Source: Candidatus Enterousia sp.
Lineage (GTDB): Bacteria; Pseudomonadota; Alphaproteobacteria; Rs-D84
Direction: 5' to 3'
Assembly (NCBI GenBank): GCA_045649345.1
Contig: JAZRPS010000011.1
Span: 1 to 62,263, forward strand
DNA: 62,263 nt
Shown: positions 6,644 through 34,909 of the stretch, one piece after another
Position numbering within the stretch: position 1 is the first letter of the stretch
Layout: every line of letters starts with the position of its first letter
The notes under the pieces: model-generated
Database searches by the model: none
What the model saw: only the letters and a program-made list of their open reading frames with translations
Told to the model about the DNA's origin: nothing
Program-made: the position numbers and the translations under genes

Positions 6644-6726
6644 GTGGGCGGTTCCGACAACTCATGTACGTTTTGTACACTATGTTGTCGGAACCCTTCC
6701 ACATCTAAATCATTCTATTTAATTTT
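6644..6726. repeat. Palindromic repeat element, copy A (hairpin plus conserved tail)
   Basis: GGTTCCGACAAC (6650-6661) pairs with GTTGTCGGAACC (6684-6695) around the loop CTCATGTACGTTTTGTACACTAT. Tail ATCTAAATCATTCTATTTAATTTT (6703-6726) is identical to 24116-24139. Confidence 0.8.
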
Positions 6727-9567: not shown

Positions 9568-9918
9568 ATGCACGAAAATATCGATGCCTTGGGGCAGTAT
9601 TTGAATCTAAGTCGTTATCAATCGAACAGATTAAAAATGAACAGTGAATTGTATAACTTTTCAGGTATGCAAAAACGCGGTGGTGTGTTGTATGCGCCAT
9701 ATGTATCACGGGGCTTTTGGGGACGTGTGGGACGCGTATTGTTTGGTGTGCGTGCAGATTTGATTGGACATGATAAAATATTATTGCGGGCGCAACGCAA
9801 GATTAAATTTTTTGCAAATGGTTATCACTGTGTGCGCGTTGGTAAATATACGTATTACGCCAATTCATTGGGGCAGGTTGTATCGCGCGATGAATTCATG
9901 CGCGATACAGGATGTTAA
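9568..9918 (+). CDS. Hypothetical protein (116 aa)
   Basis: Isolated ORF with its own upstream region. No recognisable motif. Ends convergently with a 4-bp overlap on the AsmA-like gene. Confidence 0.4.
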   Translation: MHENIDALGQYLNLSRYQSNRLKMNSELYNFSGMQKRGGVLYAPYVSRGFWGRVGRVLFGVRADLIGHDKILLRAQRKIKFFANGYHCVRVGKYTYYANSLGQVVSRDEFMRDTGC

Positions 9919-12389: not shown

Positions 12390-12446
12390 TCTCTCTGTCC
12401 TTGTTTTTTTATTATAATGGATTATATTAAGGTTGCGAATAAAAAA

Positions 12447-14438
12447 ATGAAAAAAGCAGAATTTTATCTTGAAAGTGATTATAAGCCCATGGGTGACCAG
12501 CCAACCGCAATTGCAGAGTTGGTTGATGGGGTCAGTTCTGGTAAACAATCCCAGGTTTTGTTGGGGGTGACCGGGTCAGGCAAGACATTTACAATGGCAA
12601 ATGTGATTGCAGAATTAGGACGCCCGGCGCTGATTATGGCGCCAAATAAAATTCTGGCGGCACAATTATATACGGAAATGAAGTCGTTCTTTCCGCGTAA
12701 TCATGTTGAATATTTTGTGTCGTACTATGATTATTATCAGCCAGAGGCATATATGCCAACAACGGACACTTATATCGATAAAGATGCGTCGATTAATGAA
12801 CAACTGGACCGGATGCGGCACAGTGCAACGCGCGCAATGCTGGAAGAGCGTGATGTTGTTGTGGTGTCGTCTGTTTCGTCAATCTATGGTATGGGATCGC
12901 CTGAACAATATGCCGGGATGAAATTGGTATTAAATGCCGGTGATATGATTTCGATGCGTGATGTGATGCGGGCGCTGGTTGATATTCAATATAAACGAAA
13001 TGATACGGCGTTTGAACGCGGTGATTTCCGCGTGCGTGGTGATGTGCTGGATATATTTCCGTCCCATTCACAAGATAGGGGATGGAAACTGTCTTTTTGG
13101 GGGGACGAGATAGAAGAAATCTGGGAATTTGATATTTTAACAGGTGCAAAATTAAAAAAGATAGACAGGATTGCAATCTATCCAAATACACACTATGCAA
13201 CCCCAATGCCCAGTGTTTTACAGGCATTGACGCAAATTCGCGCGGATTTAAAAGAGCGTTTGGAATACTTTCATGAAAATATGAAATATATCGAAGAACA
13301 GCGTTTGCGTGAACGTGTGAACTTTGATATCGAAATGATGGAAAGTACGGGGACATGTCGTGGGGTGGAAAATTATTCGCGATATTTATCGGGACGATTA
13401 CCGGGGCAGCCACCACCAACACTGTTTGAATACTTGCCAAAAGATGCGGTCTTGTTTATTGATGAAAGTCATGTGACGGTTCCACAAATTGGTGCGATGA
13501 GTCGCGGTGATCGTGCGCGCAAGGAAACATTGTCCCAATATGGATTCAGATTGCCGGCATGTGTTGATAATCGACCATTAACGTTTGAAGAGTGGGATAG
13601 TCTGCGTCCGCAAACGATATTTGTTTCTGCAACGCCTGCGGAGTGGGAATTGGCGCAATCAGGTGGCGTTGTTTCAGAACAGGTTATTCGACCGACGGGA
13701 TTGTTAGACCCGGTGTGCGAGGTTCGCCCAATCGAACATCAGGTTGATGATTTGTTGGGTCAAGTAAAAAATACCCAGGGACGTGTGTTGGTGACAACGC
13801 TGACCAAGAAAATGGCGGAACAGTTGACGGACTATTTGAATGAAAATAACGTCAGGGCAAAGTATCTGCACAGTGATATTGAAACGCTGGAACGTATTGA
13901 ATTACTGCGTGAATTGCGTATGGGAAAGTTTGATGTTTTGGTAGGTATCAATTTATTGCGCGAAGGGTTGGATGTGCCAGAATGCGAACTGGTCGCGATT
14001 ATGGATGCGGATAAGGAAGGATTCTTGCGTTCAACGCGGTCGCTGATTCAGACAATTGGACGTGCGGCACGTAATGCAAGCGGACGTGTGATTTTGTATG
14101 CAGATAAAATCACAGATTCAATGCGGGCGGCGCTGGACGAAACGGCGCGTCGACGTGAAAAACAAATGGCGTACAATGCAGAACATGGAATTACACCAAA
14201 AACTGTCACCAAGGCAATCTTTGCTGAGGTTGGTGAAAAACAAGAAAAGACTGACAAAGCCCGCAGATTTGTGTATGATAAATCGGGTGGTGTGATGGAT
14301 GCTGATTCAATCCGCAAGGAAATAAAGCGTCTGATAAAGATTATGCACACGCATGCAGAAAATCTGGAATTTGAAGATGCCGCTGCGGTGCGTGACACAA
14401 TTCATAAACTGGAAGATGATTTGCTGTTGGTGGAGTAG
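12447..14438 (+). CDS. uvrB: Excinuclease ABC subunit B
   Basis: [10 protein letters not shown], Walker [10 protein letters not shown], helicase motifs, C-terminal UVR domain ([17 protein letters not shown]). Start 12447 chosen for N-terminal length; 12417 is possible. Confidence 0.95.
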
Positions 14439-14975: not shown

Positions 14976-15006
14976 AAAAATACACCCCATATGGGGTGTG
15001 TTTTTA
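14976..15006. terminator. Bidirectional terminator hairpin between convergent tsaE and ftsA-rpe
   Basis: ACACCCCATATGGGGTGT palindrome flanked by an A-run and a T-run. Confidence 0.65.
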
Positions 15007-16788
15007 TGTGTTTTGAATATCTTTTTTTAGCAGGCTGTGTACTGCCAATGGAAAGTCTGGGGACTTTGCAAGGTATGAACCGCTGACCAACATGTCGGCA
15101 CCTGCGTCCCAGCATAATTTTGCAGTTCTGTCATTTATGCCACCGTCAACAGATATGACGAATTTTAATCCATATTTTTTGCGTGTTGCCACCAGAACAG
15201 ATATTTTATGCAGGGCGTCAGGTTCAAAACTTTGACCGGCAGCACCCGGTTCGACAGACATTATCATAACCTCATCAATATCGCGCAGGACAGGTTTTAA
15301 TATAGATACAGATGAGCCTGGGTTTATGGCGATTCCGACGCGACGACCAGCGTTCTTTACGATTTTTATTGCAGCACGCAAACCAGATGTATTGGTTGAC
15401 AGTATGACCGTGTCTGCGCCGGCAGCGACAGCGTCAGTTGCCCAAATGTTCGGACTTTCGGTCATTAAATGTACATGTAGATGTGCGTTTGTGTGTGTGC
15501 GGATTGTTTTTAATTCTTCGATACTGCCGGCGATTCTGTCGACATAAAAACCGTCCATAATATCGACGTGTATCATTGATATGCCACCAGATTTAAATAG
15601 GCTATATGTTTCTGGGCGTCGCATGTCAAAGCACAATGTGCTGGGTAATATTGGAATAAATCGGGTGTGATGTTTTGGTTTGCGCTTAAATAATTTATGA
15701 ACCCAGTTGGTGCGCTTTTGCCAACGGTTGTGGCGCGCAATAAATGATTCGCGTTTTGGTTGCAGACCGTGCCATATATAGTCAGACAGGGCGCGAACGG
15801 TTGCGTCGGTGGGTATTGCGTCGGTCAATACGGCAAATGCGTTTTCGATAAAGTCACGTAATCCTTCGATTTCAGCGCCACCGCCTGTTAAAATTATTTT
15901 TGTTGGGTGATATTTTGTAAATGGTTTCAGGCATTGGTCTTTGATTTGTCCAATAATATCAACCAAGATTGGTATAATAATATCGTTTACGTCGGCACGT
16001 GAAAAATCATAGGCGGTATCTGCCGGTGTAAAACGATCCATTTCTTTGGGAATCAGGGATGCGACCGCACGCTTTATTTGGTCGGCAGATTCAACAGATA
16101 TATTTAATTTTTCAGAAATTGCGTTCGTTATATCTGTGCCACCCAGTTTTATTTTTGTGTGAAAAACAGGACCGCGATCTGTCCAAATTGATGCGCTGGT
16201 AAACCCTGCGCCAAAATCGATAAATAGTGTTGGTTGCTTTTCTGTGCGATAAATTGCGTTTTGTATAAATTGTGGGTCATAAAAGGCGGTCGGTTGAATA
16301 AATGCGCCACGCATATGTTCATAAATTTTATCAATCCCACTGCGTGAATAAAATATTGCACCAAAAACAGATGCCAGTTGATGGTCAATGTGTCCAATTG
16401 GTGACAACATATTGCGCGCATGTGGCGTATCATATCGTAATGGAACAATGTGCATTGGGAAATAACCATCGGGTGGTGTTATGCGTGAAATTTGCGCACG
16501 TATGTCAGATGTGGTAATTTTATGTTCGCCAGACCATGTATCGTGTTGGATGGACATTTCAAATGCAGATGGACCAAAATTCCCGGTTATAAAGGCGTTA
16601 TCAAAGTGTGAACCAATTTGTTTTTCTAGTTCGTCAACAACAGATTTTATTGCAAATACGGTATCAAAGCTGTCCATGCTAAAAAAAGCAGAATGGTCAA
16701 TTTGGGCGTTGCGTATGCGATGCGCAATGCCACGTACACCATACGTGCCAATGTCAAGACACAAAAAAGATGAATCGTATAAGTTCAT
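15004..16788 (-). CDS. ftsA: FtsA cell-division protein fused in frame to a ribulose-phosphate 3-epimerase domain
   Basis: Residues 1-350 align by eye with FtsA (LDIGTYGV, IDFGAGFTSASIW, LGGTDIT, LTGGGAEIEGL). Residues 354-372 form a basic amphipathic stretch. Residues 377-594 carry Rpe motifs (IHVDIMDG, HVHLM, MSVEPGAAGQSF, VDGGI). Confidence 0.8.
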   Translation of the reverse strand: MNLYDSSFLCLDIGTYGVRGIAHRIRNAQIDHSAFFSMDSFDTVFAIKSVVDELEKQIGSHFDNAFITGNFGPSAFEMSIQHDTWSGEHKITTSDIRAQISRITPPDGYFPMHIVPLRYDTPHARNMLSPIGHIDHQLASVFGAIFYSRSGIDKIYEHMRGAFIQPTAFYDPQFIQNAIYRTEKQPTLFIDFGAGFTSASIWTDRGPVFHTKIKLGGTDITNAISEKLNISVESADQIKRAVASLIPKEMDRFTPADTAYDFSRADVNDIIIPILVDIIGQIKDQCLKPFTKYHPTKIILTGGGAEIEGLRDFIENAFAVLTDAIPTDATVRALSDYIWHGLQPKRESFIARHNRWQKRTNWVHKLFKRKPKHHTRFIPILPSTLCFDMRRPETYSLFKSGGISMIHVDIMDGFYVDRIAGSIEELKTIRTHTNAHLHVHLMTESPNIWATDAVAAGADTVILSTNTSGLRAAIKIVKNAGRRVGIAINPGSSVSILKPVLRDIDEVMIMSVEPGAAGQSFEPDALHKISVLVATRKKYGLKFVISVDGGINDRTAKLCWDAGADMLVSGSYLAKSPDFPLAVHSLLKKDIQNT

Positions 16789-17524: not shown

Positions 17525-17905
17525 TTACATTGCGCGTAATAAATAGCCGCGACGGAACATGCATTTGCGATATGAACCGACAGATTTTGATGTCGTGTTG
17601 CGCGGAACAGACATTAAACTGCGTTGTCCAACATCGCGATATTCATTTGATTGAAATGTCACCCACAGACCGTCCCAGTCAGGCATCTGACCGCTTTGAT
17701 TCGGGGCAAGAAATTTTGCAATGCGTGAACGTGGCTGGTGCGCAGGTCTTGTAATGCCCAGGCAAGCCTTGTGGTCACGAACGAATTGTTCGGTGGTGAC
17801 GGCTTCGTTCTCCCAATTCAAAATGGTGGCGTCATCAATACTGCCGCGATTGACAGACGCACATGATACCAGGACCAAAAATAATGGTAAAAATTTTATT
17901 CTCAT
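17525..17905 (-). CDS. Hypothetical lipoprotein (126 aa)
   Basis: Signal peptide with lipobox (LFLVLVSCAS). No family recognised. Confidence 0.55.
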   Translation of the reverse strand: MRIKFLPLFLVLVSCASVNRGSIDDATILNWENEAVTTEQFVRDHKACLGITRPAHQPRSRIAKFLAPNQSGQMPDWDGLWVTFQSNEYRDVGQRSLMSVPRNTTSKSVGSYRKCMFRRGYLLRAM

Positions 17906-17982
17906 GTTTTCTATTATAATTTATTTGCCTTTTGGTGGCAATAGTTTTTATAATGTATAAAAAAGAGAGAAAGGACAAAGGA

Positions 17983-18306
17983 ATGGCAATCACCGTTCAA
18001 CAATTTATTAAGTTGGCAAATTATTATAATCAAACTGCGATAATTATGTCCGCGATTTGTGTGCAAAAGGGCGGTATCGCAATGGAAAACTATGTTGGGC
18101 GTTTCTATGGCGCAGATCTACTAGAATTCGTTGTGGAATATGGACGTCGCTTGCAGGCACAAGATAAAAATTTGCAACCAGAAATAGTTGCGTTGATTAA
18201 TCGTTTTAGTGCACAATATGAACGGGTCAAGGATTTGGTGACGCCAACGCAAAAACCGTTCCATGAAATGACACTGGAAGAATTTGAAAAGGTTATGAAT
18301 ATTTAA
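17983..18306 (+). CDS. Hypothetical small cytoplasmic protein (107 aa), first gene of the co-directional array
   Basis: AAAGGA RBS ahead of ATG 17983. 19-bp gap to the next gene. No signal peptide. Confidence 0.45.
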   Translation: MAITVQQFIKLANYYNQTAIIMSAICVQKGGIAMENYVGRFYGADLLEFVVEYGRRLQAQDKNLQPEIVALINRFSAQYERVKDLVTPTQKPFHEMTLEEFEKVMNI

Positions 18307-18325
18307 TGGCTTAGGGAGAAGTTTT

Positions 18326-19666
18326 ATGAAATTTGTTCAAAAATATTTTTTGGGGGTTATGGTTTTTGGGGTGGCTTTGTTTTGTGTCGGTTGTGTGCAA
18401 AAAAAGCGACAACAGGTACCATTGTATGATAATATAACTGTTGTTGATGAATTGGTGATTGATTCTAATTCTGTGCCAATCTTTCCAAAAAAGGCAGCGC
18501 TGACAACAGATACGGCGCGCAGATTTTCGATTGAATTGCCAAAACGGTGTGAAGTAGACTGGGATAATCAGAATGTTGTTTCTGTTGTTCCATCTGAAAA
18601 AATAGAAATAATCCGTTTGGATACTGGTGATAAATTGCCTGAATTGCAGGTGTCTGATTATGAGTTTAAAGATTTAACTGTGAAACGTGCATTAGATAAA
18701 TTGCTGGACGGGACAGATGTTTCTGTGGTCGAAGATGAAAGTCTGTACGAGAAGATTTCAGGTACAATTTCATCGGGTGAATTATCGGATGCGGTTGAAC
18801 TGATGACGAAAATGGGACGCGTTTATTATTCGTATGATGAAGGTACGGGCGAATTGCATTTGGCACATCGTGGAAAATGGCTGATAAAAATGCCGCAAAA
18901 TGAAACGATTATTATGGCGCTGTTAGACGCGATGCATGGCGCAGATATGCGAAACCTGTTGGTCGATTGGGCGGATAAAACTGTTGTGTTCGAAGGTAAT
19001 TATCAGACAGAACGTGAAGTGGCAAAGATAATCGCTGATATTTCTGGTAAAAAATATATGTTGGCGTGGGATATTGATGTGTATCGTGTGTATCCGCGTA
19101 CAGATAATCCAATTGTTTGGATGAACCTGTTGCCGGCGTTTGGTGAAAAAAATATAAAAATGTCAATCCCTGGGGTTGTTGGGCGTGCGCTGGTTGTGGG
19201 TCCGGAAATTAATACAAAAACATTGCAGGAATTCTTGGGGCAACAGGCAAATGTTGTCTTGGTATCACAGGGTACGTTTGCAATCCCAAATGGGTGGCAA
19301 TCGCGATTTGATATTGGTCAGTGTGGTCGCGAAGAACGTCTGGAGACAGATTTAATTATTGGTGCAACGGGTAAATATGCGGACTTTGCGGGGCGTAAAA
19401 AGATTGATGCGAAAATTGTTTTGCGTACGTCAAATGGGGAATTGTCGTCCTTTAATATTCCGTCCACGGTTGGCGATAACTATGTAATTGTGGGTATTCC
19501 AACGCATTCGTTTGTGACGACGCCGGAAACATTGGTGTCGCCGTTTGCAGAATTGGTTGTATTTATGTCGCCGCGTATAATTTCAATTGTTGATGGACCG
19601 ACGGGTCATGATGATAGTATGACGGATTTGGTTGGTGATGCATTGCGTGATTTTTTAAGTGAATAA
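18326..19666 (+). CDS. Secretin-like outer-membrane lipoprotein (446 aa), tentative
   Basis: Lipobox (ALFCVGCVQ). N-domain-like segment (FKDLTVKRALDKLLDGTDVSVV). C-terminal region resembles a secretin domain (ANVVLVSQGTFAIPNGWQSRFDIGQ, VIVGIP, ELVVFMSPRII). Confidence 0.45.
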   Translation: MKFVQKYFLGVMVFGVALFCVGCVQKKRQQVPLYDNITVVDELVIDSNSVPIFPKKAALTTDTARRFSIELPKRCEVDWDNQNVVSVVPSEKIEIIRLDTGDKLPELQVSDYEFKDLTVKRALDKLLDGTDVSVVEDESLYEKISGTISSGELSDAVELMTKMGRVYYSYDEGTGELHLAHRGKWLIKMPQNETIIMALLDAMHGADMRNLLVDWADKTVVFEGNYQTEREVAKIIADISGKKYMLAWDIDVYRVYPRTDNPIVWMNLLPAFGEKNIKMSIPGVVGRALVVGPEINTKTLQEFLGQQANVVLVSQGTFAIPNGWQSRFDIGQCGREERLETDLIIGATGKYADFAGRKKIDAKIVLRTSNGELSSFNIPSTVGDNYVIVGIPTHSFVTTPETLVSPFAELVVFMSPRIISIVDGPTGHDDSMTDLVGDALRDFLSE

Positions 19667-19681
19667 TAGGGTGGGTTAATT

Positions 19682-20935
19682 ATGTTTTCAAAACTGGAAA
19701 GAAAGATTGCGTTTAGATATTTGGGGGCAAAAAAGCGTGGATTTGGTTCGGTGATTTCATGGGTGTCGCTGATTGGTATTATGCTGGGGGTGGCGACACT
19801 GATTGTGGTTATGTCGGTTATGGGTGGTTTTCATGATACGTTGTTGGGACGTATTGTTGGAATGAATGGACATGTGGTTGTTTATCACCAAGATGGTGCG
19901 ATTTCTGATTTTGATTTCTTGATTGATAAAATGAAGCAGAACAAGGTTGTCGCCCAACGTGCAACATCAATTGTGCCAATTGCCGAAGGGCAGGTTATGG
20001 CAACCGCCAATGGTAAAAATACAGGTGCAATGATACGTGGGATTCGAATGAACGATTTGGCGGCAAAAACGCAAACAGGAACACGTATATATGGCAAAAG
20101 TTTGTCTGAAATCAAAGATGGCGAATTGGTTGGTGGGTCGTCTTTGACACGTGCATTGAATGTGACAATGGGGGACAAGATTTCGTTGGTGTCTGCCAAT
20201 GGTGCAACGCCAACGCCATTTGGTTCAATGCCACGAATTATGTCGTATCCGGTGATGAGTTCGTTCTTTATGGGTATGTATGAATATGATTCTGGGTATA
20301 TCTTTATGCCGTTGGAAACCGCGCAAAAGTATTTAAATATTGGTAATGGTGTGACGCATATCGATTTGTTCTTGGACAATCCAGAAGATACAACAGCAGT
20401 GGTGGAAAGTTTGTCGCGACTGTTGCCAGAAGGTTTTGTTGTTCGTGATTGGCGTGATTTGAATCGTGGCTTTGTCGGGGCATTACAGGTTGAATCAAAT
20501 GTGATGTTTTTAATCTTGATGTTAATTGTTATTGTCGCGGCGTTTAACATTGTTTCCAGTCTGGTTATGTTGGTAAAGGATAAAAATAAAGACATCGCGG
20601 TTTTGCGTACGTTTGGTGTGTCGCGTAAATCAATGATGAAGATATTTATTTTGTCGGGGACATCAATCGGTGTGATTGGTGCGTTCTTTGGGACGATATT
20701 GGGCGTTCTGATTGCGATATATGTTGAACCGATTCGTCAGTTTTTCCAATGGTTGACCGGGCGTGATTTGTTTCCGTCAGAATTGTATTATTTGTCTGAA
20801 TTGCCATCAAAGTTGGTCATAGGCGAGGTTGTTGGTATTGCCCTGATTGCGATTTTATTGGCGTTCTTGGCAACATTGTATCCGGCATGGAAGGCGGCAA
20901 AAACCGACCCGGTAGAGGTGTTAAGGAATGAATAA
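19682..20935 (+). CDS. lolC: Lipoprotein-releasing ABC transporter permease (LolC/LolE family)
   Basis: FRYLGAKKRGFGSVISWVSLIGIMLGVATLIVVMSVMGGF N-terminus, large periplasmic loop, C-terminal FtsX-type TM bundle ending DPVEVLRNE. Confidence 0.85.
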   Translation: MFSKLERKIAFRYLGAKKRGFGSVISWVSLIGIMLGVATLIVVMSVMGGFHDTLLGRIVGMNGHVVVYHQDGAISDFDFLIDKMKQNKVVAQRATSIVPIAEGQVMATANGKNTGAMIRGIRMNDLAAKTQTGTRIYGKSLSEIKDGELVGGSSLTRALNVTMGDKISLVSANGATPTPFGSMPRIMSYPVMSSFFMGMYEYDSGYIFMPLETAQKYLNIGNGVTHIDLFLDNPEDTTAVVESLSRLLPEGFVVRDWRDLNRGFVGALQVESNVMFLILMLIVIVAAFNIVSSLVMLVKDKNKDIAVLRTFGVSRKSMMKIFILSGTSIGVIGAFFGTILGVLIAIYVEPIRQFFQWLTGRDLFPSELYYLSELPSKLVIGEVVGIALIAILLAFLATLYPAWKAAKTDPVEVLRNE

Positions 20936-20941
20936 AAGAGT

Positions 20942-21670
20942 GTGAGCAAAATGGCGAAGATTTTGGATTCTTTATCAAAGGTAAATCGTGGCGATGTGGT
21001 TATGTCGGTGCGTGATATAAAGCGGACGTTTGTCGAAGGGGGGCAGCCATTACATATTTTGCGTGGCGGTGGTTTTGATTTGCATCGTGGTGAAATTATT
21101 GCCTTGGTTGGTGCGTCTGGGTCTGGGAAATCAACACTGTTGCAGTGTGTTGGGCTGTTGGACAGACCCAGTGGGGGCAGTATTATGATTGGTGGTGCGC
21201 CGATACAGAAAATGGACGAAGATATGCGTACGCAAATTCGTCGTAAAAAAATAGGATTTGTTTATCAGCGTCATAATTTATTGTCTGATTTTACCGCAAT
21301 TGAAAATGTTATGTTGCCGATGTTGGCGAATGGCGTGGCCGAAGATGCAGCACGCGCGCGCGCAATCAAACTGTTGCGTGCGGCAAATGTTGCGCATCGT
21401 GCGTCGCACCTGCCGGGGGAAATGAGTGGCGGTGAACAACAGCGTACCGCTGTTGCGCGTGCGTTGGCTAATAATCCGGATATCTTGTTGGCGGACGAAC
21501 CAACGGGCAGTTTGGACCCAATGCATGCAGGGGCGGTGTTTGATTTGCTGATGGATTTGGTGCGTAAAAACAAAATGGCAATGCTGTTTGTGACGCATGA
21601 TATGAATTTGGCATCGCGTGCAGACCGCAGAATAACAATTAATAATGGTATTGTTGAATCAATGCACTGA
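20942..21670 (+). CDS. lolD: Lipoprotein-releasing ABC transporter ATP-binding protein
   Basis: Walker A GASGSGKST, signature MSGGEQQR, Walker B LLADEPTGSLD. GTG at 20942 or ATG at 20951. Confidence 0.85.
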   Translation: MSKMAKILDSLSKVNRGDVVMSVRDIKRTFVEGGQPLHILRGGGFDLHRGEIIALVGASGSGKSTLLQCVGLLDRPSGGSIMIGGAPIQKMDEDMRTQIRRKKIGFVYQRHNLLSDFTAIENVMLPMLANGVAEDAARARAIKLLRAANVAHRASHLPGEMSGGEQQRTAVARALANNPDILLADEPTGSLDPMHAGAVFDLLMDLVRKNKMAMLFVTHDMNLASRADRRITINNGIVESMH

Positions 21671-21722
21671 TTTATGATATAATGGTGTAGAAGCAACAGA
21701 TTTTTGTTTTTAATAAAAAGGG

Positions 21723-22265
21723 ATGAAAATGAAAAAGTCAGAGGGAAAATTTGTAAAAGTTTTATGTTATGTAGCAACGTTTGTTGTCGGGGCAGGTATT
21801 GGTTTCTTTGCGTCGGAAATAACGGCAAAAAAAGGTATGCAATTATCTGATGCACAGTGTGCGGTCGTTCAAGAAAAAATTATCGAAAATGCAAAGTGTT
21901 ATAGTGCGTTTTGTACAGAACACTTAAAGGAACTGTATGCGATTTACCGTAATGATTGTGCAGGTCGTATTATTCCAGAAGAAATATATGAAATGCGGTC
22001 TTGTGCACAGATGGAAAAAATTATAAAAAAGCGTTTCGATGCGTCCAAGGAAACAAGTTCGTCTTATCGTGATCATATCAGCCTGGCCAGCTATTTTGTA
22101 AAATTGGCGGTGCATGCATGTCCGGAACATGTTGAAATGTACAATAATCTGGCGTGGCGTGAAATTGAAATTGTGGGGGCGTTGACATCTGTGGAATATA
22201 TGGATATGGCAGATAAACAAGAATTAAACCGTGTGTTGAAAACACTGGGTGAAAATAAGAAATAA
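21723..22265 (+). CDS. Membrane-anchored hypothetical protein with a Cys-containing helical module (180 aa)
   Basis: N-terminal TM anchor. One copy of the ~60-aa module C-x2-ME-x2-I...ACPEH-x3-Y-x3-A-x-REIEIVGAL, shared with the next gene. Confidence 0.55.
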   Translation: MKMKKSEGKFVKVLCYVATFVVGAGIGFFASEITAKKGMQLSDAQCAVVQEKIIENAKCYSAFCTEHLKELYAIYRNDCAGRIIPEEIYEMRSCAQMEKIIKKRFDASKETSSSYRDHISLASYFVKLAVHACPEHVEMYNNLAWREIEIVGALTSVEYMDMADKQELNRVLKTLGENKK

Positions 22266-22289
22266 AAATATAAGAAAAGGAGAGAGACA

Positions 22290-23060
22290 ATGAAAAAAGC
22301 AGAAAAGCAATATAGGGTTGTGCATAGTCGTTCACAAAAAATCTGGGGGGCGTTGGCACTGGCGGGATTATTTGCATGTGGATTGTTGGTTGGTTGGGGT
22401 ATCAATGAAAAACGCAGTGCGCCACAACAACTGGAAATGGAACAGATTGCAAAGCCTGTCCCCCAGGTTGATGGTGATGTGAAACCGGTCACAGAACAAA
22501 ATTCTGAACCAAAAGAAACGTGCCAGATTATTGAAGACCTGTTATTGGAACGTCTGGCGCCAGTTGATAGTCAAGACGTTGAAGCGCATGAATTTAATAT
22601 TAATGTTTATGAAAAGTTGGTAATGAATGGCTGTTCAGAAAATCAAATGAAATATCACAAGGCGGCACAACGAGAACGTGAAATTGTAAACGCGTTGCAA
22701 CAGACAAACAGTTCACAACAAACATGTGAACAGATTGAAACATTGTTGACGCAACAATTGCCGTATGCAAATGAAGATTCGGAAGCGCGTATAGAACGTG
22801 CAAAAATCTATGCAAATTTATCTGAACGTGGTTGTCCAGAAAATAGTGCGAAATATGTTGAATTGGCAAAACAAGAACTGGAAATCGCACGTGCGTTAGA
22901 AGATGATGAATTTGATAATGATGAAACAATCGAAGTTGTTGAAACATACAAGCGTTTGAATATGCAGGCGGCAGCCGAAGAAATTTTTGAAACGGCGAAA
23001 AAACTGACTAACCCGGCGATTGATTTTATCTTGGAAGTTGAAAAAATAATTAATGAATAA
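22290..23060 (+). CDS. Membrane-anchored hypothetical protein with two copies of the same module (256 aa)
   Basis: TM anchor (IWGALALAGLFACGLLVGWGI). Modules TCQIIEDLL...GCSENQMKYHKAAQREREIVNAL and TCEQIETLL...GCPENSAKYVELAKQELEIARAL. Confidence 0.55.
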   Translation: MKKAEKQYRVVHSRSQKIWGALALAGLFACGLLVGWGINEKRSAPQQLEMEQIAKPVPQVDGDVKPVTEQNSEPKETCQIIEDLLLERLAPVDSQDVEAHEFNINVYEKLVMNGCSENQMKYHKAAQREREIVNALQQTNSSQQTCEQIETLLTQQLPYANEDSEARIERAKIYANLSERGCPENSAKYVELAKQELEIARALEDDEFDNDETIEVVETYKRLNMQAAAEEIFETAKKLTNPAIDFILEVEKIINE

Positions 23061-23077
23061 AAATTAAGGAACAAAGA

Positions 23078-23677
23078 ATGAAATTCTGGGTGATTTTATT
23101 CGGATTGGTTTTAACAACAGGTGCATTTGCCACAGATGACACAACCGAAGATGTTGTCGAAGAAGAGGTTGTTGAAGAAGAGGCAGAAGCGTCTGTTGTA
23201 GAGCGCATATCGTGTACAGATATTCAGGCGCAGATAACAGAATTGAGTGCCATAGAAGAACCGGATGAAGAAACGCAAGAAGAATTGGCAAATCTGAAAG
23301 CAACCCAACGTTCGAAATGTATGCGCAGTGCAGGAAAGCGACGTGCCGCCGTGGGACGCAAAGCGCTGATTGCAGCATCAGAAGCGTCGACGACCACAGA
23401 AGAAGTTTTGGTTGATGAGAGTGTAGAGAAAGAACAGCCAAAACAAGAGGCTGAGAAAGAAGAAGTCGTTAAGGAGGTTGTTGTTGAAGAACAAACCGTG
23501 TCCGAATTAACCCCGGAACAGGTTCAGGCAAATTTGGACGCAGGACTGTGTGCAGATGGTGCAAAACCGAATCGTTTTGGTTGTTGCGGCGATGAAATTT
23601 TTAAAGATATGGGGAATGCTGTTTTTGCATGTTGTCCAAAATCTGGGGGTGATTGTTTGCCACCAATAGGAAAATAG
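23078..23677 (+). CDS. Secreted acidic protein with a C-terminal cysteine-knot-like domain (199 aa)
   Basis: Signal peptide MKFWVILFGLVLTTGAFA, Glu/Val-rich low-complexity body, C-terminal CADGAKPNRFGCCGDEIFKDMGNAVFACCPKSGGDCLPP. Confidence 0.6.
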   Translation: MKFWVILFGLVLTTGAFATDDTTEDVVEEEVVEEEAEASVVERISCTDIQAQITELSAIEEPDEETQEELANLKATQRSKCMRSAGKRRAAVGRKALIAASEASTTTEEVLVDESVEKEQPKQEAEKEEVVKEVVVEEQTVSELTPEQVQANLDAGLCADGAKPNRFGCCGDEIFKDMGNAVFACCPKSGGDCLPPIGK

Positions 23678-23687
23678 GGTGTTAATA

Positions 23688-23933
23688 ATGAAAAAGTGTG
23701 TTAGTTCAACAACGGCGATAATTATATCTTTTTTTATAGGTTTTGGTTTGGGTATCTTGACCTGGGCGAATCGTGACGCAATGTCCGCGTCATCCGCCAC
23801 CTGTGCCGATGGTTCGCGACCAGACAAGCATGGTTGTTGTGCTGGTGAGGTTTACACAGATATGGGGGATTTAGGGTTTAATTGTTGTCCAGGGGATAGC
23901 GAGGATAGTGACTGTTTTCCACCCCTAAAATAA
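23688..23933 (+). CDS. Small exported protein carrying the same C-terminal cysteine domain (81 aa)
   Basis: TM/signal segment then CADGSRPDKHGCCAGEVYTDMGDLGFNCCPGDSEDSDCFPP. ATG 23688 preferred over GTG 23679. Confidence 0.55.
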   Translation: MKKCVSSTTAIIISFFIGFGLGILTWANRDAMSASSATCADGSRPDKHGCCAGEVYTDMGDLGFNCCPGDSEDSDCFPPLK

Positions 23934-24034
23934 AATCTAATGGTATATCTAAAGCGGGTTAGCAATGGCTCATGTACGTTTGTGTACACTACGCCATTTT
24001 TAACCCGTTTATCTATACCATTATCTTTTATTTT
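23927..24034. repeat. Palindromic ~108-bp MITE/REP-like element, copy B1
   Basis: Arms of ~43 bp (AAAATAAAATCTAATGGTATATCTAAAGCGGGTTAGCAATGGC and its imperfect reverse complement) around the loop TCATGTACGTTTGTGTACACTAC. Near-identical to 55163-55272. The stop codon of the upstream gene lies in the left arm. Confidence 0.85.
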
Positions 24035-24057
24035 TAAAAAATTATAATAATTCATCT

Positions 24058-24139
24058 AAAAACAAATCGGGCATCTCATGTAGCGTTTGTACACTACGAC
24101 GCCCGATTTGTTTTTATCTAAATCATTCTATTTAATTTT
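24058..24139. repeat. Palindromic repeat element, copy B2 (hairpin plus conserved tail)
   Basis: AAAAACAAATCGGGC / GCCCGATTTGTTTTT arms around ATCTCATGTAGCGTTTGTACACTACGAC. Tail ATCTAAATCATTCTATTTAATTTT is identical to copy A. Confidence 0.8.
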
Positions 24140-24181
24140 TCCCATGGCAAGGGGTGTGGGCAGGGCAGATTAATTATTCGC

Positions 24182-27685: not shown

Positions 27686-28486
27686 ATGCAATCAGGGCTT
27701 TATATTGTTGGTACGCCAATTGGTAATTTGTCTGATATGTCGCCACGTGCAATTGAAACATTGCAGAATGTAGACTTAATTGCCGCCGAAGATACGCGTG
27801 TGTTTGGCAAGTTGGCAAGTCATTTTGATATTAAAACAAAACGTGTATCATGTCATGAGCATAATGAACGCGATGTTGTGCCGGATTTAATCGAAAAAAT
27901 TCAAAGCGGTATGGCAATTGCAGTGGTTAGCGATGCAGGTATGCCCGGTATCAGCGACCCAGGTTTTCGTATCGTGCGTGCCGCCCGTGAAGCGGGGGTT
28001 GATGTGTTTGTTGTGCCGGGACCGGTCGCAGGTATAAGTGCCTTGGTTTTGTCTGGTTTCCCAACAGACAGATTCACGTTCTGTGGATTTATGGACGAAA
28101 AAAAATTGCGTGATGATAATAAAATACCACATACGATTATTTATTATGAAAGTCCGAATCGGGTTATGGCGACAATTGCAAAAATGGCCCAGATTATGCC
28201 AGAACGAAAAATTGCAATTGTGCGTGAAATTACAAAAATACATGAACAGGCAATTATTGGTTATCCGGCAGAATTGATGTCTATGACGCCACCACGTGGG
28301 GAAATTGTTATTGTTGTTGCGCCACGACCAGAACATAAAATGTCGGACAGTGAAATTTCAGAAATTGTTAATGATATTGCTGCGATATCTATGAAATCTG
28401 CCGCGGCAGATTTGGCAGCGCGCACAGGTATTTCAAAAAAAGAAGCGTATAAACGGCTGTTGGAAAAAGGGGGCAATGATGATTAA
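27686..28486 (+). CDS. rsmI: 16S rRNA (cytidine1402-2'-O)-methyltransferase
   Basis: LYIVGTPIGNLSDMSPRAIETLQNVDLIAAEDTR and ISDPG motifs of the tetrapyrrole-methylase-fold RsmI. Confidence 0.9.
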   Translation: MQSGLYIVGTPIGNLSDMSPRAIETLQNVDLIAAEDTRVFGKLASHFDIKTKRVSCHEHNERDVVPDLIEKIQSGMAIAVVSDAGMPGISDPGFRIVRAAREAGVDVFVVPGPVAGISALVLSGFPTDRFTFCGFMDEKKLRDDNKIPHTIIYYESPNRVMATIAKMAQIMPERKIAIVREITKIHEQAIIGYPAELMSMTPPRGEIVIVVAPRPEHKMSDSEISEIVNDIAAISMKSAAADLAARTGISKKEAYKRLLEKGGNDD

Positions 28487-29033
28487 ATTTGTGGGCAGTT
28501 TTGAAACCGTAAAATCGTTGCCTAATTCGCATTTTGCAGAATATGCGTTTATTGGGCGTAGTAATGTTGGAAAATCATCGTTAATTAATGCGGTTGTTGG
28601 TGCGCCAATTGCGCGTACTTCAAATACGCCAGGGCGTACACAAAGTTTAAATCTGTTTAATCTGGATGATCGGGTGATGATTGTCGATTTGCCGGGTTAT
28701 GGATATGCGCGTGTGTCAAAGGTTGATGCAATGCGTTGGTTAAAGCGATTGGAAGAATATTTGTTAACGCGTCGTCAATTAAAGCGTCTGTTTATCTTGA
28801 TTGATTCGCGAATTGGTGCGCGGGATTCTGACCTGGATTTGATGGATTTTTGTGATGCGAATGCAATTCAATATCAGATTGTTTATACAAAAAAAGATAA
28901 GCGTGTACGCGAAGAAAAACAACACGAAATAAAACATACAGACCATGGGGCAATGTTGCCAGAAATATTGCAAACATCTGCGGAAAAGAAAACAGGACTG
29001 GATTCGATAAGGGCGACACTTGGCATCAAATAA
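28476..29033 (+). CDS. engB: Ribosome biogenesis GTP-binding protein YihA/EngB
   Basis: G1 GRSNVGKSS, G3 DLPGYG, G4 TKKD. 11-bp overlap with rsmI. Confidence 0.9.
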   Translation: MMIKFVGSFETVKSLPNSHFAEYAFIGRSNVGKSSLINAVVGAPIARTSNTPGRTQSLNLFNLDDRVMIVDLPGYGYARVSKVDAMRWLKRLEEYLLTRRQLKRLFILIDSRIGARDSDLDLMDFCDANAIQYQIVYTKKDKRVREEKQHEIKHTDHGAMLPEILQTSAEKKTGLDSIRATLGIK

Positions 29034-31515
29034 AAATATTTTTTATGCAACAAATCCGGCAAAAATTACAGATGCATTGTGGCAGGTGATGTGTGATGCA
29101 GGTGTTGATGTCGCAGATATGTTGATTTTTTTGCCCAGTCGTCGTGCAGTCAGAACAGTTGAAAAAATGATTGCAGAAAAGTCTGGTGGTGTTGCGATAT
29201 TGCCAACGCTGGTTGCGCTGGGCGAAGGGGTCGATGACCCAGATACAGATGAAATCGTTGCAGATGATGTTATTTCAAATACAGAACGTGTCATTGTGTT
29301 GGCAAAGTTGTTAAGTGCAGATTCAAATGTCGGAAATTTATCAACTGCATTGCCTGTGGCGCGCGATTTAGTGCGTATGCAGGATTATCTGGAAAATGAG
29401 GGAATAGATGCGCGTGATATTTGCTGGTCTGAATTGATTGATGAAAAATATGCAACTCATTTCCAAAACAAGGCAAAAATATTAAATATATTGTCTGAAT
29501 TTATGCCGGCATATGCAAATGGGCGAATTACATCGACCCAGGCGCGAAATCGTGATATTCGTGAATGGATTAAGCATCTGGGTAAGTATCGTTTGGTGAT
29601 TGTTTGTTCGTCAACCGCTAGTGTGCCTGCGACCGCAGATTTAATGGCGGCGGTTGCAGAATGTGAAAATGGGCGAATAATATTGCCTGGTAAAATTTCT
29701 GGGCGGTTGGTTGATTTTGAATTAAGTACAAATCCGTATAATTCTGAATATAAATTTTTACAGCGTATTGGTGTGGCGCCAGATGAAGTTCATGAAATTG
29801 ATGTTGGTGTGTCTGCGATTGATTTTATGAATTATGCATTTAGTAATGATACGTCTGTTTTCAATGTAGAATGTGATTTGTCACACTGTCATTTAATCGA
29901 ATGTCCGCGTGAAGCGGTAGAGGCGGAAACCGTCGCAGAAATTGCAACGCGTGCAATTGCAGATAAAAAATCTGTCTTGGTGATAACACCGGATGCCGCC
30001 GGAAATCAGCGTATCGCAGTGTCGTTGGCGGCACGTGGAATTGATGCGGATTTTTCGGGTGGGCAATCTGGTGCAATGACAGATACAGGGCGCGCAATAC
30101 TAAATTTGCTTGATTCATGGATAGAAAACGAATCGAATTTATTTGATAAAATATATGCAGAATCAGGCTTTGATTTATTTAATACGATTTCAAAAATTGT
30201 TGAGATGTATAGTGAGAACTTTATGCCGTCCTTTATTGTTGATGATAATACGTCAATTGCGATTTGGGGGGCGATTAAAGAATATTCGGATGCGTTGGCG
30301 TGTGCGGATGTGCGCTTGAATTTGTTGGATGCGCGTGCGTTTGTCGCAGATGCAATTTCTGGGGTGTCGATACGTGGTGTGATGAATGATGGTGCGTCGG
30401 TTGTTGTGTTGGGGACAATCGAATCGCGTATGCAGACCGCAGATGTCGTGATTTTAACCGGATTAAATGAAGGAATGTTCCCGGCGCGTGGATATGAAAA
30501 TGCATGGTTGCCACGACATTTGTCTGAAAAGATTGGATTGCCGTCGCCAGATAGAAAGGTGTCTTTGCAGGCATTGGACTTTATGAATTTGTCATGTGGT
30601 GCAAATGTATTTTGGTTGCGCAGCATGGTTGCAGGTTCTGTTCAGACAACCGAATCACGGTTTTTATCACGCGTGATTGCGCGACGTGGGCATTTCAATA
30701 AAGATACAGAAATATTAAATTATGTATTGGCGCGTGATGATATGCCGTATGTGCCGTTGGATAATTCTGCGCCAAATCCGCCGTCTGATTGGTCTGATGT
30801 TTATGTGACGGCGTTGGAATTGTTGATTCATAATCCGTATGCGTTTTATGTGCGGCATATTTTGAGGTTAAAGGTTTTGGATGATTATTGGGTTGCGCCT
30901 GATGCACGAAAGTTTGGGGATTTGGTGCATTCTGTGATTGAAAACGGGCATGGTTTTTCACCAGATGTACTGGTGCATGAAATGGATAGGCGTGCATTTG
31001 AAGTATTGGGACAGGGTAGTGTTGCATTTCATTTTTGGCATAAAAGGTTTGTTGAAATTGCGCCAATTATTGCGCGTGAATTAAACGCAATGTCAGATAT
31101 GAAGTCGGAAATTGCAGGTGCTGTTAAAATCGCAGGTCGTACGGTTCGTGCGCGTGCCGATGGTGTTTGGAATTCTGGTGTTATGGATATCAAGACAGGT
31201 GCTGCGCCATCTAAGTCACAGTTAGAGCAAGGAAATATGCCGCAATTGCCGTTAGAGGCGTTTATGTTGCAATCTGGTGGGTTTGTAGGGGTGGCATCTG
31301 TCGCGCGTCCGATTATGCGTTTCTTGCAATTAAAAAATAATGATGTGCGTATCATTGAATATGATGCAGATACCACTGCACAAATGATGAATGCCGCAGT
31401 TGATAAGGTGACAGAATTATTTAATATTTATTCCGCAGGAAATGCACCATATGAATATCGTGAAACAAGTGAACAAAAATATAAAGCTTATGATGATTTA
31501 GCGCGGGTGTTTTGA
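29020..31515 (+). CDS. addB: Double-strand break repair protein AddB (alphaproteobacterial type)
   Basis: N-terminal LIFLPSRRAVRTVEKM, C-terminal PD-(D/E)xK-like RADGV...MDIKTG...PQLPLEAF. No in-frame ATG near the start (TTG at 29020, 14-bp overlap with engB). Confidence 0.65.
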   Translation: MASNKNIFYATNPAKITDALWQVMCDAGVDVADMLIFLPSRRAVRTVEKMIAEKSGGVAILPTLVALGEGVDDPDTDEIVADDVISNTERVIVLAKLLSADSNVGNLSTALPVARDLVRMQDYLENEGIDARDICWSELIDEKYATHFQNKAKILNILSEFMPAYANGRITSTQARNRDIREWIKHLGKYRLVIVCSSTASVPATADLMAAVAECENGRIILPGKISGRLVDFELSTNPYNSEYKFLQRIGVAPDEVHEIDVGVSAIDFMNYAFSNDTSVFNVECDLSHCHLIECPREAVEAETVAEIATRAIADKKSVLVITPDAAGNQRIAVSLAARGIDADFSGGQSGAMTDTGRAILNLLDSWIENESNLFDKIYAESGFDLFNTISKIVEMYSENFMPSFIVDDNTSIAIWGAIKEYSDALACADVRLNLLDARAFVADAISGVSIRGVMNDGASVVVLGTIESRMQTADVVILTGLNEGMFPARGYENAWLPRHLSEKIGLPSPDRKVSLQALDFMNLSCGANVFWLRSMVAGSVQTTESRFLSRVIARRGHFNKDTEILNYVLARDDMPYVPLDNSAPNPPSDWSDVYVTALELLIHNPYAFYVRHILRLKVLDDYWVAPDARKFGDLVHSVIENGHGFSPDVLVHEMDRRAFEVLGQGSVAFHFWHKRFVEIAPIIARELNAMSDMKSEIAGAVKIAGRTVRARADGVWNSGVMDIKTGAAPSKSQLEQGNMPQLPLEAFMLQSGGFVGVASVARPIMRFLQLKNNDVRIIEYDADTTAQMMNAAVDKVTELFNIYSAGNAPYEYRETSEQKYKAYDDLARVF

Positions 31516-31548
31516 TTTTAATAATTTTTGTGGTATAATACACCAGAT

Positions 31549-32736
31549 ATGGCGAGAGATAAATATATTTCAGTAGGAAAGAGAGTTAGTGGATTTTCGT
31601 TTGCAAATCTGGGGTTCTTTACGGGTTTTGCAGATGGTATATATAATGCCGTATATTCCCTGGTTATTTTAGAGATATTTAAATCTTCGGCGATTGTTGG
31701 TTTGTATGTGGGGTTGTATTCAATCTTTTGTTTTATTGTTGGATTGTTTGCAAATGAGATATTTCGCCAGTTTTCAAAAGTGCGTGTGTTTTACTTTGTA
31801 ATGCTGATGTTGGCGATTTGTTATGCGATGATGAGTTTTTCAATTCTGCCACGTACGTTTATTATATTGGATTATACAACAGGTATTGCAATTACGCTGG
31901 TTGCGGTATTGATTCCGTTGTTTATGTCAGACTTTTCAAAAAACATTGGTATGGCGCGGTTAAATTCGCGATATCATTTATGGATGAATATTGGGGCGGT
32001 CTTTGCGCCAACGGTTGCGGTGTTGATTGCAAATCATTTCGGAAATAGGGCAGCGTTCTTTGGGTCCGCATTGATTTATTTTGCAGGGTGGTTGTTGTTT
32101 AAATATTTTAGGGTTGTTCAGCAAGACAAACAAATAAAGCCAGTGAATCCACGTAAGACATTTATTGGTCTGTGGAAAAACACCAAGGACTTTTTTCGAC
32201 TGCCGGGTATGACACGTGCATACTTGGTAAATTTTGGTTATTATTCATTGCGTGCGATGCGTGTTTTATATGTGCCGATATTGGTGATTGAAAACGGTTT
32301 TAGTAAGGATACGTTGGGCTGGGTGTTGACGTTGGGAATTGTACCGTATTTAGTGCTTAGTGAATTTATAGGGCGCGCAGTTCGCAAATATGGTAAAACA
32401 ATCTGGTTGGTTTTGGGGTTTGGGTCTTTTGCGGTGTTGTCTGCGATTGCAACATTTGTGACGGGGGTGCCGTTGTTGGCAATATTTGTTGCATGGCAGG
32501 TTTCGGGGGCATTGATGGAATCTGTGCATGATTTGTTGTTCTTTGATGGTACGCAAAAGTCACAACAGACAAAATATTATGGGGTATTCAGAACCAGTTC
32601 TAACCTGCCAAATGTTGTTGCGCCAATTTTGGGTGCAGGTATTATCGCGTTCTTTGGTACAACATCGGCAGTGTGGACGGTGACGGCGTTGGTTGGTGCG
32701 TTTAGTATTTTGGTACTGGTGACCAAAAAGCGGTGA
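31549..32736 (+). CDS. MFS-type transporter
   Basis: About 12 hydrophobic spans in two halves separated by a basic loop ([18 protein letters not shown]). Start set at Met 31549. Confidence 0.65.
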
Positions 32737-32813
32737 AAAGCGGTTGCTTTATAACGCTTGCATTTTGTTGGGTTTATTTGTATGATTTTCCTGAGATTAA
32801 AGGGGAAATATAT

Positions 32814-33893: not shown

Positions 33894-33991
33894 AATGACA
33901 GAAGTTGATGAATAACTTTTTATCGAAATCCGGGCGCAGGTGTTGCGTTCGGATTTGTTTCTTTTGTAAAACATAAAAAAGGGATGTGAGT

Positions 33992-34888: not shown

Positions 34889-34909
34889 AAAAATAAAAAG
34901 GGGTACGTG

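Follow-up and report, generated by a model that had tools for sequence, protein, structure and literature searches.

We analysed an array of eight co-directional genes, here called g1 to g8, at positions 17983-23933 of a 62,263-nt stretch of DNA from Candidatus Enterousia sp. (positions 1 to 62,263 of contig JAZRPS010000011.1, assembly GCA_045649345.1); the whole stretch is referred to as the window. Enterousia belongs to the uncultured order Rs-D84, whose members have reduced genomes, lack flagella and a respiratory chain and probably live in dependence on a partner (PMC12306168). The main subject is the association of a gene for a secretin-like lipoprotein (g2) with the genes of a LolDF-type lipoprotein transporter (g3 and g4), which are followed by four genes for small cysteine-containing proteins (g5 to g8). 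An earlier note, based on the sequence alone, had described eight + strand open reading frames (ORFs) with gaps of 1-52 bp; all eight were recovered at those coordinates with the same gaps, which are 19, 15, 6, 52, 24, 17 and 1 bp from g1 to g8. An alternative call of g8 (81 amino acids (aa) from the ATG at 23688) makes the last gap 10 bp. The genes of the array are:

17983-18306, + strand: g1, 107 aa, without signal peptide or transmembrane segment
18326-19666, + strand: g2, 446-aa lipoprotein of the secretin superfamily
19682-20935, + strand: g3 (lolF/lolC-type), LolF-type (LolC/E family) type VII ATP-binding cassette (ABC) permease with 4 transmembrane helices, a MacB-like periplasmic domain and a predicted LolA-docking hook
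20942-21670, + strand: g4 (lolD), LolD-type ABC ATPase with a GTG start and an ATG 9 nt downstream
21723-22265, + strand: g5, 180 aa, N-terminal membrane anchor, 7 Cys
22290-23060, + strand: g6, 256 aa, N-terminal hydrophobic anchor, two tandem C...GC(P/S)EN repeats
23078-23677, + strand: g7, 199 aa, cleavable Sec signal peptide (..GAFA/TD), acidic linker, C-terminal 6-Cys domain
23679-23933, + strand: g8, 84 aa, signal anchor and 6-Cys domain (C-x9-CC-x13-CC-x7-C)

The array is probably one operon, with genes that would be transcribed together and that form three layers of different age. Its base composition is uniform with that of the surrounding DNA. Other 7-gene co-directional runs with similar gaps are found in the window (e.g. 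27686-35938 and 48156-58562), and Enterousia genomes are about 90% coding with a size of 0.75-1.0 Mb (PMC12306168). Tight packing on its own therefore tells little and the argument is carried by the comparative data: the feature that exceeds chance is the conservation of the array across species.

Two sets of loci were compared with the window. The first consists of 80 GTDB species genomes, in which g2 is 77-95% identical to that of the window; the second consists of 88 further loci from look-ups of distant homologues and from a metagenome scan, for which the query was a 10-sequence subset of the alignment. The close copies of the locus are found in metagenome-assembled genomes (MAGs) from the guts of animals and humans, which bear the names Candidatus Enterousia or 'Alphaproteobacteria bacterium'. 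In the GTDB set lolC follows g2 in 80/80 loci and lolD is seen in all 78 with sequence; the order 126-aa lipoprotein gene (- strand), g1, g2, lolC, lolD is kept wherever sequence exists, even where ftsQ and ftsA have been relocated. Among the further loci with a g2 homologue 34-85% identical and with downstream sequence, lolC and lolD come next in 63/63. The gap between g2 and lolC is typically about 15 nt, and the two genes overlap by 4-8 nt in loci L082 and L086. These two belong with L081 to a deeper sub-clade, in which LolC is 45-47% identical to the window protein and the core is followed by genes for DUF5131 and LspA (L081), DUF488 (L082) or RuvX-NUDIX (L086). The flanks are thus unrelated among loci while g2, lolF and lolD stay together. 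The earlier note had proposed a comparison of gene neighbourhoods in relatives, with the secretin-like gene and the four small genes as the points of interest; the former stays with lolCD in 143/143 informative loci, and the latter are absent or replaced in divergent relatives.

The conservation of the proteins differs across the array. The median identities to the window in the 80 species are 90% for lolC, 85% for lolD, 84% for the 126-aa lipoprotein, 82% for g2 and 78% for g1; ftsA and ftsQ have 68% and 64%. The values for the small genes are 56% (g6), 54% (g8), 42% (g7) and 31% (g5, found in 30 loci only). Some loci contain additional DNA within the core. An extra gene of about 650 bp lies between lolC and lolD in 12/78 species (L002, L004, L014, L017, L020, L030, L036, L041, L051, L059, L060 and L073); in L002 it is a 204-aa ORF without signal peptide (12600-13214), which overlaps the lolC stop and abuts the lolD start. 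Extra DNA is also present between g2 and lolC in L039, L078 and, from the metagenome set, L163.

A sister clade of about 20 loci, with g2 homologues 30-33% identical, has no adjacent lolCD. Downstream of the secretin-like gene these loci carry a gene for a 165-296-aa protein ('dn'), with a predicted membrane segment in L088, the sole one checked. The secretin-like protein therefore does not strictly need neighbouring LolCD. A midpoint-rooted neighbour-joining tree of the g2 homologues separates the lolCD-linked sequences, among them those of L087 and L163, from the unlinked ones. Based on these comparisons, the link between the secretin-like gene and LolDF is real, old and uncharacterised, and g2 is a fixed partner of lolFD, not a random lineage-specific gene. 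A full-text literature search on Alphaproteobacteria found no published description of a secretin-like gene linked to lolCD, and neither 'secretin' nor 'lipoprotein' occurs in the text of the Enterousia genome paper (PMC12306168).

The g2 protein has been described in the earlier note as a lipoprotein with secretin-like features, and this description is right. In 29 orthologues the lipobox residue G22 is nearly invariant and C23 is invariant. The lipobox is followed by N0/STN-like and KH-like ring domains, a shortened secretin domain at about residues 308-427 and a clade-specific C-terminal helix. Residues C75 and C333 are invariant across the whole family, which suggests a periplasmic disulfide. 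Curated models give little: neither g2 nor 28 family members reach a Pfam or NCBIfam secretin threshold, the Pfam matches of g2 and three family members to STN are weak, and HMM (hidden Markov model) searches of solved structures in the PDB from two g2 alignments found no secretin. In a profile-profile comparison, hhalign aligns the g2 family (28 sequences) to 20 PF00263-positive secretins with probability 100 and E 5e-39, and the aligned span runs from g2 residue 81 to 427 against the N-domains and the entire secretin domain.

The family was also traced by its weakest members. In a search of 1.84 billion cluster representatives, 128 belong to the g2 family at E <= 1e-3, and those looked up are all unnamed or hypothetical proteins from metagenomes or alphaproteobacterial MAGs. 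The weakest matches are true secretins: PF00263 is found in 10/10 tested, and the MshL and GspD models score 20/20 and the R64 PilN model 18/20 of them. In direct phmmer and tblastn searches the matches to true secretins have E-values of 1e-6 to 9e-8, the latter value being that of an annotated plasmid secretin (tblastn).

Structure prediction points in the same direction. AlphaFold2 with 29 near-identical orthologues gave a predicted local distance difference test score (pLDDT) of 30, and a divergent alignment was needed; with that, the monomer model has pLDDT 83 and a predicted TM-score (pTM) of 0.73. The model contains repeated beta-alpha-beta-beta-alpha units at residues 85-307, so that an N0/STN domain followed by KH-like ring domains is predicted. 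The top 30 Foldseek matches of the model in the PDB are all secretins; the best is BfpB of the type IVb pilus (E 5e-10), and others are InvG, PilQ, GspD, phage pIV, N0-N1-N2 fragments of XcpQ and N0-N1-N2 crystal structures of GspD. Their TM-scores are low (0.13-0.25); a monomer model cannot take the extended chain conformation of the 15-mer. The relationship of g2 to the secretins is confirmed by both the profile-profile comparison and the fold search.

The secretin domain of g2 is reduced. It has about 115-120 aa vs 169 Pfam positions and is about one third shorter than the canonical domain. The hhalign alignment places three gaps of about 18-22 columns in it, one of which removes the stretch from the 'GG(L/I)' strand to the final '(S/T)EL..P' strand. 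The canonical counterpart of this stretch carries a G-x-P loop motif, which we take to be the amphipathic loop that inserts into the outer membrane; the other two gaps lie where we would expect the gate hairpins. According to this alignment, g2 has neither the full-length elements of a double-walled barrel nor the loop motif, and it may not be a gated transmembrane barrel. Since the full barrel and the partner genes are missing and no curated secretin threshold is reached, g2 is best placed in a divergent, reduced branch of the superfamily and in no named secretin family.

The g3 protein, for which an exact look-up found no record, contains the Pfam domains MacB_PCD (PF12704) and FtsX (PF02687), and reaches 420.6 bits with the LolC/E equivalog model TIGR02212 (cut-off 362.45). 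Its best solved relative is the LolF chain of a homodimeric LolDF (9w37), matched over the full length with E 2e-67, and E. coli LolC (E 6e-51) and LolE (E 3e-47) both rank behind LolF. In Acinetobacter baylyi LolF, a beta-hairpin hook formed by P170-P181 (PEATPSPAGVVP) enters LolA (PMC13575116). The corresponding region of g3, at about residues 171-184 (ANGATPTPFGSMP), aligns with the A. baylyi hook, for which the LolA-contact residues in the comparison are T173, P174, S175, P176, A177 and P181. The hook region with T.FG..PR is also retained in the distant relatives L081, L082 and L086. By sequence, g3 has thus kept the LolA hook. The g4 protein contains the Pfam domain ABC_tran and its best NCBIfam model, at a score below the cut-off, is TIGR02211 (LolD). 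The identification of the two genes in the earlier note as a LolC/E-type permease and its ATPase thus stands, with the permease above its cut-off and LolD as the best model of the ATPase.

No paralogue of g3 or g4 is found elsewhere in the 62-kb window, which contains one permease gene only, and with a genome of 0.75-1.0 Mb a second Lol system is unlikely. Every proteobacterium examined in a published survey has either LolCE or LolF, with LolD and LolA; LolB is missing from Alphaproteobacteria, and in Caulobacter LolA supplies the LolB activity (PMC9963962). By these sequence features g3 and g4 look like an ordinary, homodimeric housekeeping LolDF. The first of two readings in the earlier note, a canonical Lol system that happens to sit among lineage-specific envelope genes, is therefore right about the transporter (TIGR02212 score, LolF as best relative, hook) and overlooks that g2, with g1, is a fixed partner of lolFD.

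The first gene of the array, g1, encodes a reduced version of the C-terminal domain found in a protein, Y, whose gene precedes the secretin-like gene family-wide. The Y proteins of L081, L084 and L085 match the window at 17995-18162 (tblastn), and the Y protein of L171 also matches g1. A g1 gene is present in 80/80 species. Outside Enterousia, the genes upstream of the secretin-like gene encode a 330-aa double Xre-type helix-turn-helix (HTH) protein, an acidic protein X (217-1160 aa) and protein Y (147-498 aa); this set is found at 5245-8004 in L086, 4678-7760 in L081, 4214-7707 in L088 and 2296-7914 in L091, and the sister clade has the same HTH-X-Y upstream context. The C-terminus of X and the N-terminus of Y have a common domain (G..W ... 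YLP.FG..G..LL), and the C-terminus of Y is the g1 domain. None of the three proteins has a signal peptide, a transmembrane segment or, besides HTH, a Pfam family. In L084 and L086 Y overlaps the secretin-like gene by 4 nt. Since Y/g1 precedes the secretin-like gene even in the sister clade without lolCD, the oldest pairing is that of these two genes; the order of assembly suggested by the comparison is the Y/g1-secretin-like pairing, then the linkage to lolFD, and the small genes last. Some sister-clade loci also have TrbL/VirB6-like genes further upstream, outside the conserved block, with weak matches (18-26 bits).

Concerning the origin of g2, the nearest canonical relatives are found in pilus-type clusters, which contain the genes for a secretin, a small protein, a T2SSE ATPase and a T2SSF platform protein, with a peptidyl-prolyl isomerase further along; these clusters come from two metagenomic contigs and one conjugative Rhodoferax plasmid. 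With queries from L169 and L170, tblastn found no T2SSE or T2SSF homologue in the window, and in 168 related loci (2.4 Mb) one weak partial match only (L106). When the window ORFs of 150 aa or more were scanned with Pfam, only housekeeping families came up, and no ATPase or platform protein of a pilus or type II secretion system (T2SS). Two other origins were considered and rejected. The plasmid matches of g2 are distant canonical secretins. The sole phage match is L171 (GenBank MT835708.1, 'UNVERIFIED: Bacteriophage sp.', human faeces), which has the HTH-X-Y-secretin-like-dn set of the sister-clade (Group B) metagenome loci and is therefore probably a bacterial contig, not a phage.

The genes g5 to g8 consist of two paralogous pairs with shared cysteine patterns, as the earlier note had claimed: g5 and g6 (BLASTP E 1e-7) have in common the C...GC(P/S)EN repeat, present once in g5 and twice in g6, and g7 and g8 (E 2e-14, 48% over 42 aa) have in common the 6-Cys domain. 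Homologues of g6, g7 and g8 are found after lolD in 73-77/80 Enterousia-type species, while g5 is detectable in 30/80 only. These genes diverge three to five times faster than those of the core, g7 being the fastest-evolving gene of the array, and the g8 family contains 17 protein clusters only in 5.8 billion, all of 76-102 aa. Nothing comparable is found after lolD in the divergent clade members L117, L166, L143 and L121, nor in L081, L082 and L086. In L149 lolD is followed by an unrelated 129-aa Cys-rich lipoprotein gene, and L002 carries an additional g5/g6-like gene, so that the number of small genes varies among loci. Based on this distribution, g5 to g8 appear to be a variable cassette of fast-evolving exported proteins, restricted to a sub-clade, and no fixed set of cargo.

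An invariant Cys, in LF[VAIT]CG with a basic region before it, lies in the hydrophobic segment of g6, and a standard lipobox is found in 19/77 orthologues; the segment could be an atypical lipobox or a transmembrane helix with a conserved Cys-Gly. Lipoprotein status was rejected for g5, g7 and g8, which have no conserved lipobox: g7 has a signal of the signal-peptidase-I type and g5 and g8 have signal anchors.

The ends of the array are marked by the following features:

17525-17905, - strand: divergent lipoprotein gene, 126 aa, signal ...LVLVSC, transcribed away from g1
17906-17982, 77 bp: divergent intergenic region between g1 and the 126-aa lipoprotein gene, with promoter-like hexamers on both strands (+ 17925-17954; - 17941-17913)
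23930-24140, + strand: two long hairpins that end the array (fold energies, inverted repeats), the second followed by a T-run

The 126-aa lipoprotein gene, which has no Pfam family, lies beside g1 in 78/80 species loci, also where ftsQ and ftsA have moved, and is absent from the deeper clades. The promoter-like matches in the divergent region reach 10/12 and 11/12 in a consensus scan, but the whole scan is not enriched over shuffles, so that the hexamers are no more than suggestive of promoters. The site scan found no terminator-like sites in the intergenic gaps of the array on the + strand, and two strong hairpins follow g8, in agreement with the earlier note, which saw no terminator hairpin before the array end. 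The first hairpin (23930-24032) has a fold energy of -40.2 kcal/mol (z -8.5) and the second (24036-24140) one of -28.4 kcal/mol (z -7.2) with the T-run next to it. Both loops contain the 11-mer TGTACACTACG, which is found in the window at 23983-23993, 24088-24098, 55221-55231 and, with 1 mismatch, 6674-6684; these 4 matches compare with 0.48 expected, and the 11-mer may be a small repeated palindromic element.

Some other genes of the window were recorded as well. On the - strand, 15004-16788 contains a 594-aa ORF with an FtsA-like actin-fold N-terminal part (PF14450) and a complete ribulose-phosphate 3-epimerase domain (PF00834, residues 393-573); it is present at full length in 53 related species (tblastn, median coverage 0.99), and the fusion therefore seems to be conserved and not an assembly error. 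An 877-aa ORF at 9915-12548 (- strand) has a weak N-terminal AsmA match (24.9 bits, below cut-off) and may be a divergent AsmA-like lipid-transport protein. Six glycosyltransferase or capsule-type genes (Caps_synth, GT2, Stealth, RgpF, GT61) form a cluster on both strands at 33986-39945, which suggests that this very small genome has a locus for surface polysaccharides. Directly after ftsK there are an 868-aa ORF (55178-57784), a 267-aa exported Cys-containing ORF (57759-58562) and a 960-aa ORF (59355-62237), none of which has a Pfam match.

The explanation we lean towards, with somewhat more belief than doubt, is a housekeeping LolDF operon that is co-expressed with a self-piloting mini-secretin, itself a client of the Lol pathway, with the tail genes riding along. 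In this explanation lolF and lolD would encode the ordinary homodimeric LolDF transporter of the cell. The g2 gene would descend from the secretins of type IVb-pilus-like (thin-pilus) machines, having lost the pilus ATPase, the platform and about a third of the pore domain. Its product would leave the cytoplasm through Sec, receive its lipid and, after release by LolDF, travel to the outer membrane in the manner of the self-piloting liposecretins, where it would assemble into a lipid-anchored ring. The position of g2 directly before lolFD would couple its synthesis to the Lol capacity, which would matter because mislocalised secretin multimers are toxic. The proteins g5 to g8 would be Cys-rich, exported through Sec and either anchored in the membrane or secreted, and their genes would have joined the 3' end of the operon in the Enterousia sub-clade; most likely the proteins are surface or host-interaction proteins carried on a constitutive envelope operon, not substrates of a g2/LolDF exporter. 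The data show what the genes are, that g2 is homologous to secretins, how the array is conserved and that the hook has been kept; we infer that the genes are transcribed together, that g2 lies in the outer membrane, forms a ring and depends on LolDF, and why the linkage exists. The explanation is consistent with an intact LolA hook, a rare g2 family, a sister clade without the linkage and the insertions tolerated within the core.

Several observations weigh against it. The dependence of liposecretins on Lol does not, on its own, explain an adjacency kept through deep divergence, and we know of no other lipoprotein genes that are welded to lolCD. The job of a ring without a pilus or secretion machine is left unexplained, as is the coupling of the cytoplasmic-looking g1/Y to the secretin-like gene, and g2, without the segment of the membrane-inserting loop, may not span the outer membrane at all. 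As for the transporter, g4 scores 242 bits on the LolD model, under the cut-off of 307.75, and only slightly lower on the YbbA and MacB ATPase models. In proteobacteria lolA often sits directly after ftsK; the two ORFs at that place in the window have no LolA-like match. A promoter-like site is also found at 21654-21683, in the 52-bp gap between lolD and g5 (same consensus scan, overall not enriched over shuffles).

The main rival is that g2 would be a working partner of LolDF: a secretin-derived, lipid-anchored outer-membrane ring that receives lipoproteins from LolDF and LolA, either as an acceptor or insertase in the absence of LolB or as an exit ring for surface exposure. The adjacency in all 143 informative loci, over g2 identities of 34-95% and with reshuffled flanks, speaks for such a partnership, as do the overlapping genes of L082 and L086 and the conservation of g2, almost like that of LolD, in a genome of <1 Mb that is shorn of most non-essential genes. 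A secretin-like ring for which no pilus or T2SS partner was found needs another job, and the gene order also recalls the canonical relatives, in which an ATPase and a polytopic platform come after the secretin, just as a polytopic permease and an ATPase do here. Alphaproteobacteria, moreover, lack LolB (PMC9963962). We nevertheless consider a working partnership unlikely: the hook of LolF for LolA is intact and Caulobacter LolA already has LolB activity, the rarity of the family (128 representatives in 1.84 billion) means that LolDF has no general need of g2, in the sister clade the secretin-like gene does not have lolCD as neighbours, and inserted genes are tolerated on both sides of lolC, towards g2 and towards lolD. 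Doubtful to a slightly greater degree is its more specific form, in which a secretin-derived ring was recruited to the Lol pathway in Rs-D84-type Alphaproteobacteria, acts directly with LolDF and LolA as a LolB substitute or surface exit ring, and has g1/Y as its dedicated cytoplasmic partner.

The linkage could also be without functional meaning, g2 (with g1) having landed beside lolFD once in the ancestor of the clade, in gene-dense small genomes that seldom rearrange inside operons. The position of the lolCD-linked homologues on one side of the g2 tree fits a single origin, the window has many tight co-directional runs of housekeeping genes that are unrelated to one another, and the sister clade functions unlinked. 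However, the flanks have been replaced repeatedly (ftsQ and ftsA have moved, and the downstream genes of L081, L082, L086 and Enterousia differ) while the three-gene core is unsplit in 143 loci, and the 45-47% identity of LolC between sub-clades indicates a long divergence; we regard a neutral linkage as rather improbable.

The second reading of the earlier note, a dedicated envelope or export module, was right that the secretin-like gene travels with lolCD (80/80 and 63/63) and wrong about the four small Cys genes, which do not. Its claim that g2 and the type VII ABC machine act on these proteins, as an exporter like MacAB-TolC or the Aat dispersin exporter, has in its favour the tight co-directional genes, the terminator hairpins only after g8 and the g6-g8 homologues after lolD in most Enterousia-type species, but it is largely refuted and hardly credible any longer, as the small genes are missing after lolD in the divergent clade members and the deeper clade, vary in number and diverge several times faster than the core genes. 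Also against it are the ordinary Sec signal peptide of g7 and the signal anchors of g5 and g8, the lack of a membrane-fusion adaptor or TolC-like gene, and the score of the permease as LolC/E/F, not MacB.

Secretins are the outer-membrane pores of type II and type III secretion, type IV pili and filamentous phage. That strong selection keeps a shortened member without its partners in genomes of <1 Mb suggests a role beyond the known machines. In Alphaproteobacteria the final step of lipoprotein transport, without LolB, is only partly understood, and a protein whose gene is fixed directly before the essential LolDF across deep divergence is a candidate accessory factor of lipoprotein trafficking. 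The conservative explanation, i.e. the LolDF operon with a mini-secretin as Lol client, still defines an uncharacterised family of 128 representative clusters, apparently all of uncultured Alphaproteobacteria, and the small Cys proteins leave the proposed module.

When compared with known systems, the array resembles MacAB-TolC and Aat in that a MacB-fold permease, an ATPase, an outer-membrane channel-type protein and small exported proteins are encoded side by side. It differs in that it has no adaptor, TolC-family duct or acyltransferase gene: Pfam and NCBIfam searches found no HlyD-family adaptor, TolC-family duct or AatD acyltransferase among the eight products or their neighbours. A MacB-type tripartite pump was ruled out on the missing adaptor and duct genes. 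The permease is also of the LolC/E/F type with a predicted LolA hook, and the small proteins are not conserved partners. The g3 and g4 proteins are more like the LolDF of Acinetobacter baylyi and A. baumannii, Caulobacter and Helicobacter, with which they have in common the single permease gene plus lolD, the full-length LolF match and the hook; unlike in these systems, the genes are fixed in an operon behind a secretin-like gene and g4 is below the LolD cut-off.

For the route of g2 to the outer membrane, the systems to compare are self-piloting liposecretins such as HxcQ of P. aeruginosa and pilotin-secretin pairs such as PulS-PulD, in which the secretin gets to the outer membrane either as a lipoprotein itself or in complex with one and so needs LolCDE and LolA. 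Their secretin genes are in T2SS operons, not beside lolCD, and their pore domains, unlike that of g2, are full-length. The closest relatives are the type IVb liposecretins (BfpB of enteropathogenic E. coli, PilN of plasmid R64 and TcpC) and the MshL-type secretins. The g2 family is shorter than these canonical relatives (400-450 aa vs 460-750 aa), has no ATPase, platform or pilin genes nearby and contains two family-specific invariant Cys. The proteins are alike in the lipobox, the N0/STN-like and KH-like domains and the C-terminal secretin domain, and it is the type IVb and MshL secretins that are closest to g2 both in fold (BfpB) and in sequence (MshL and PilN models).

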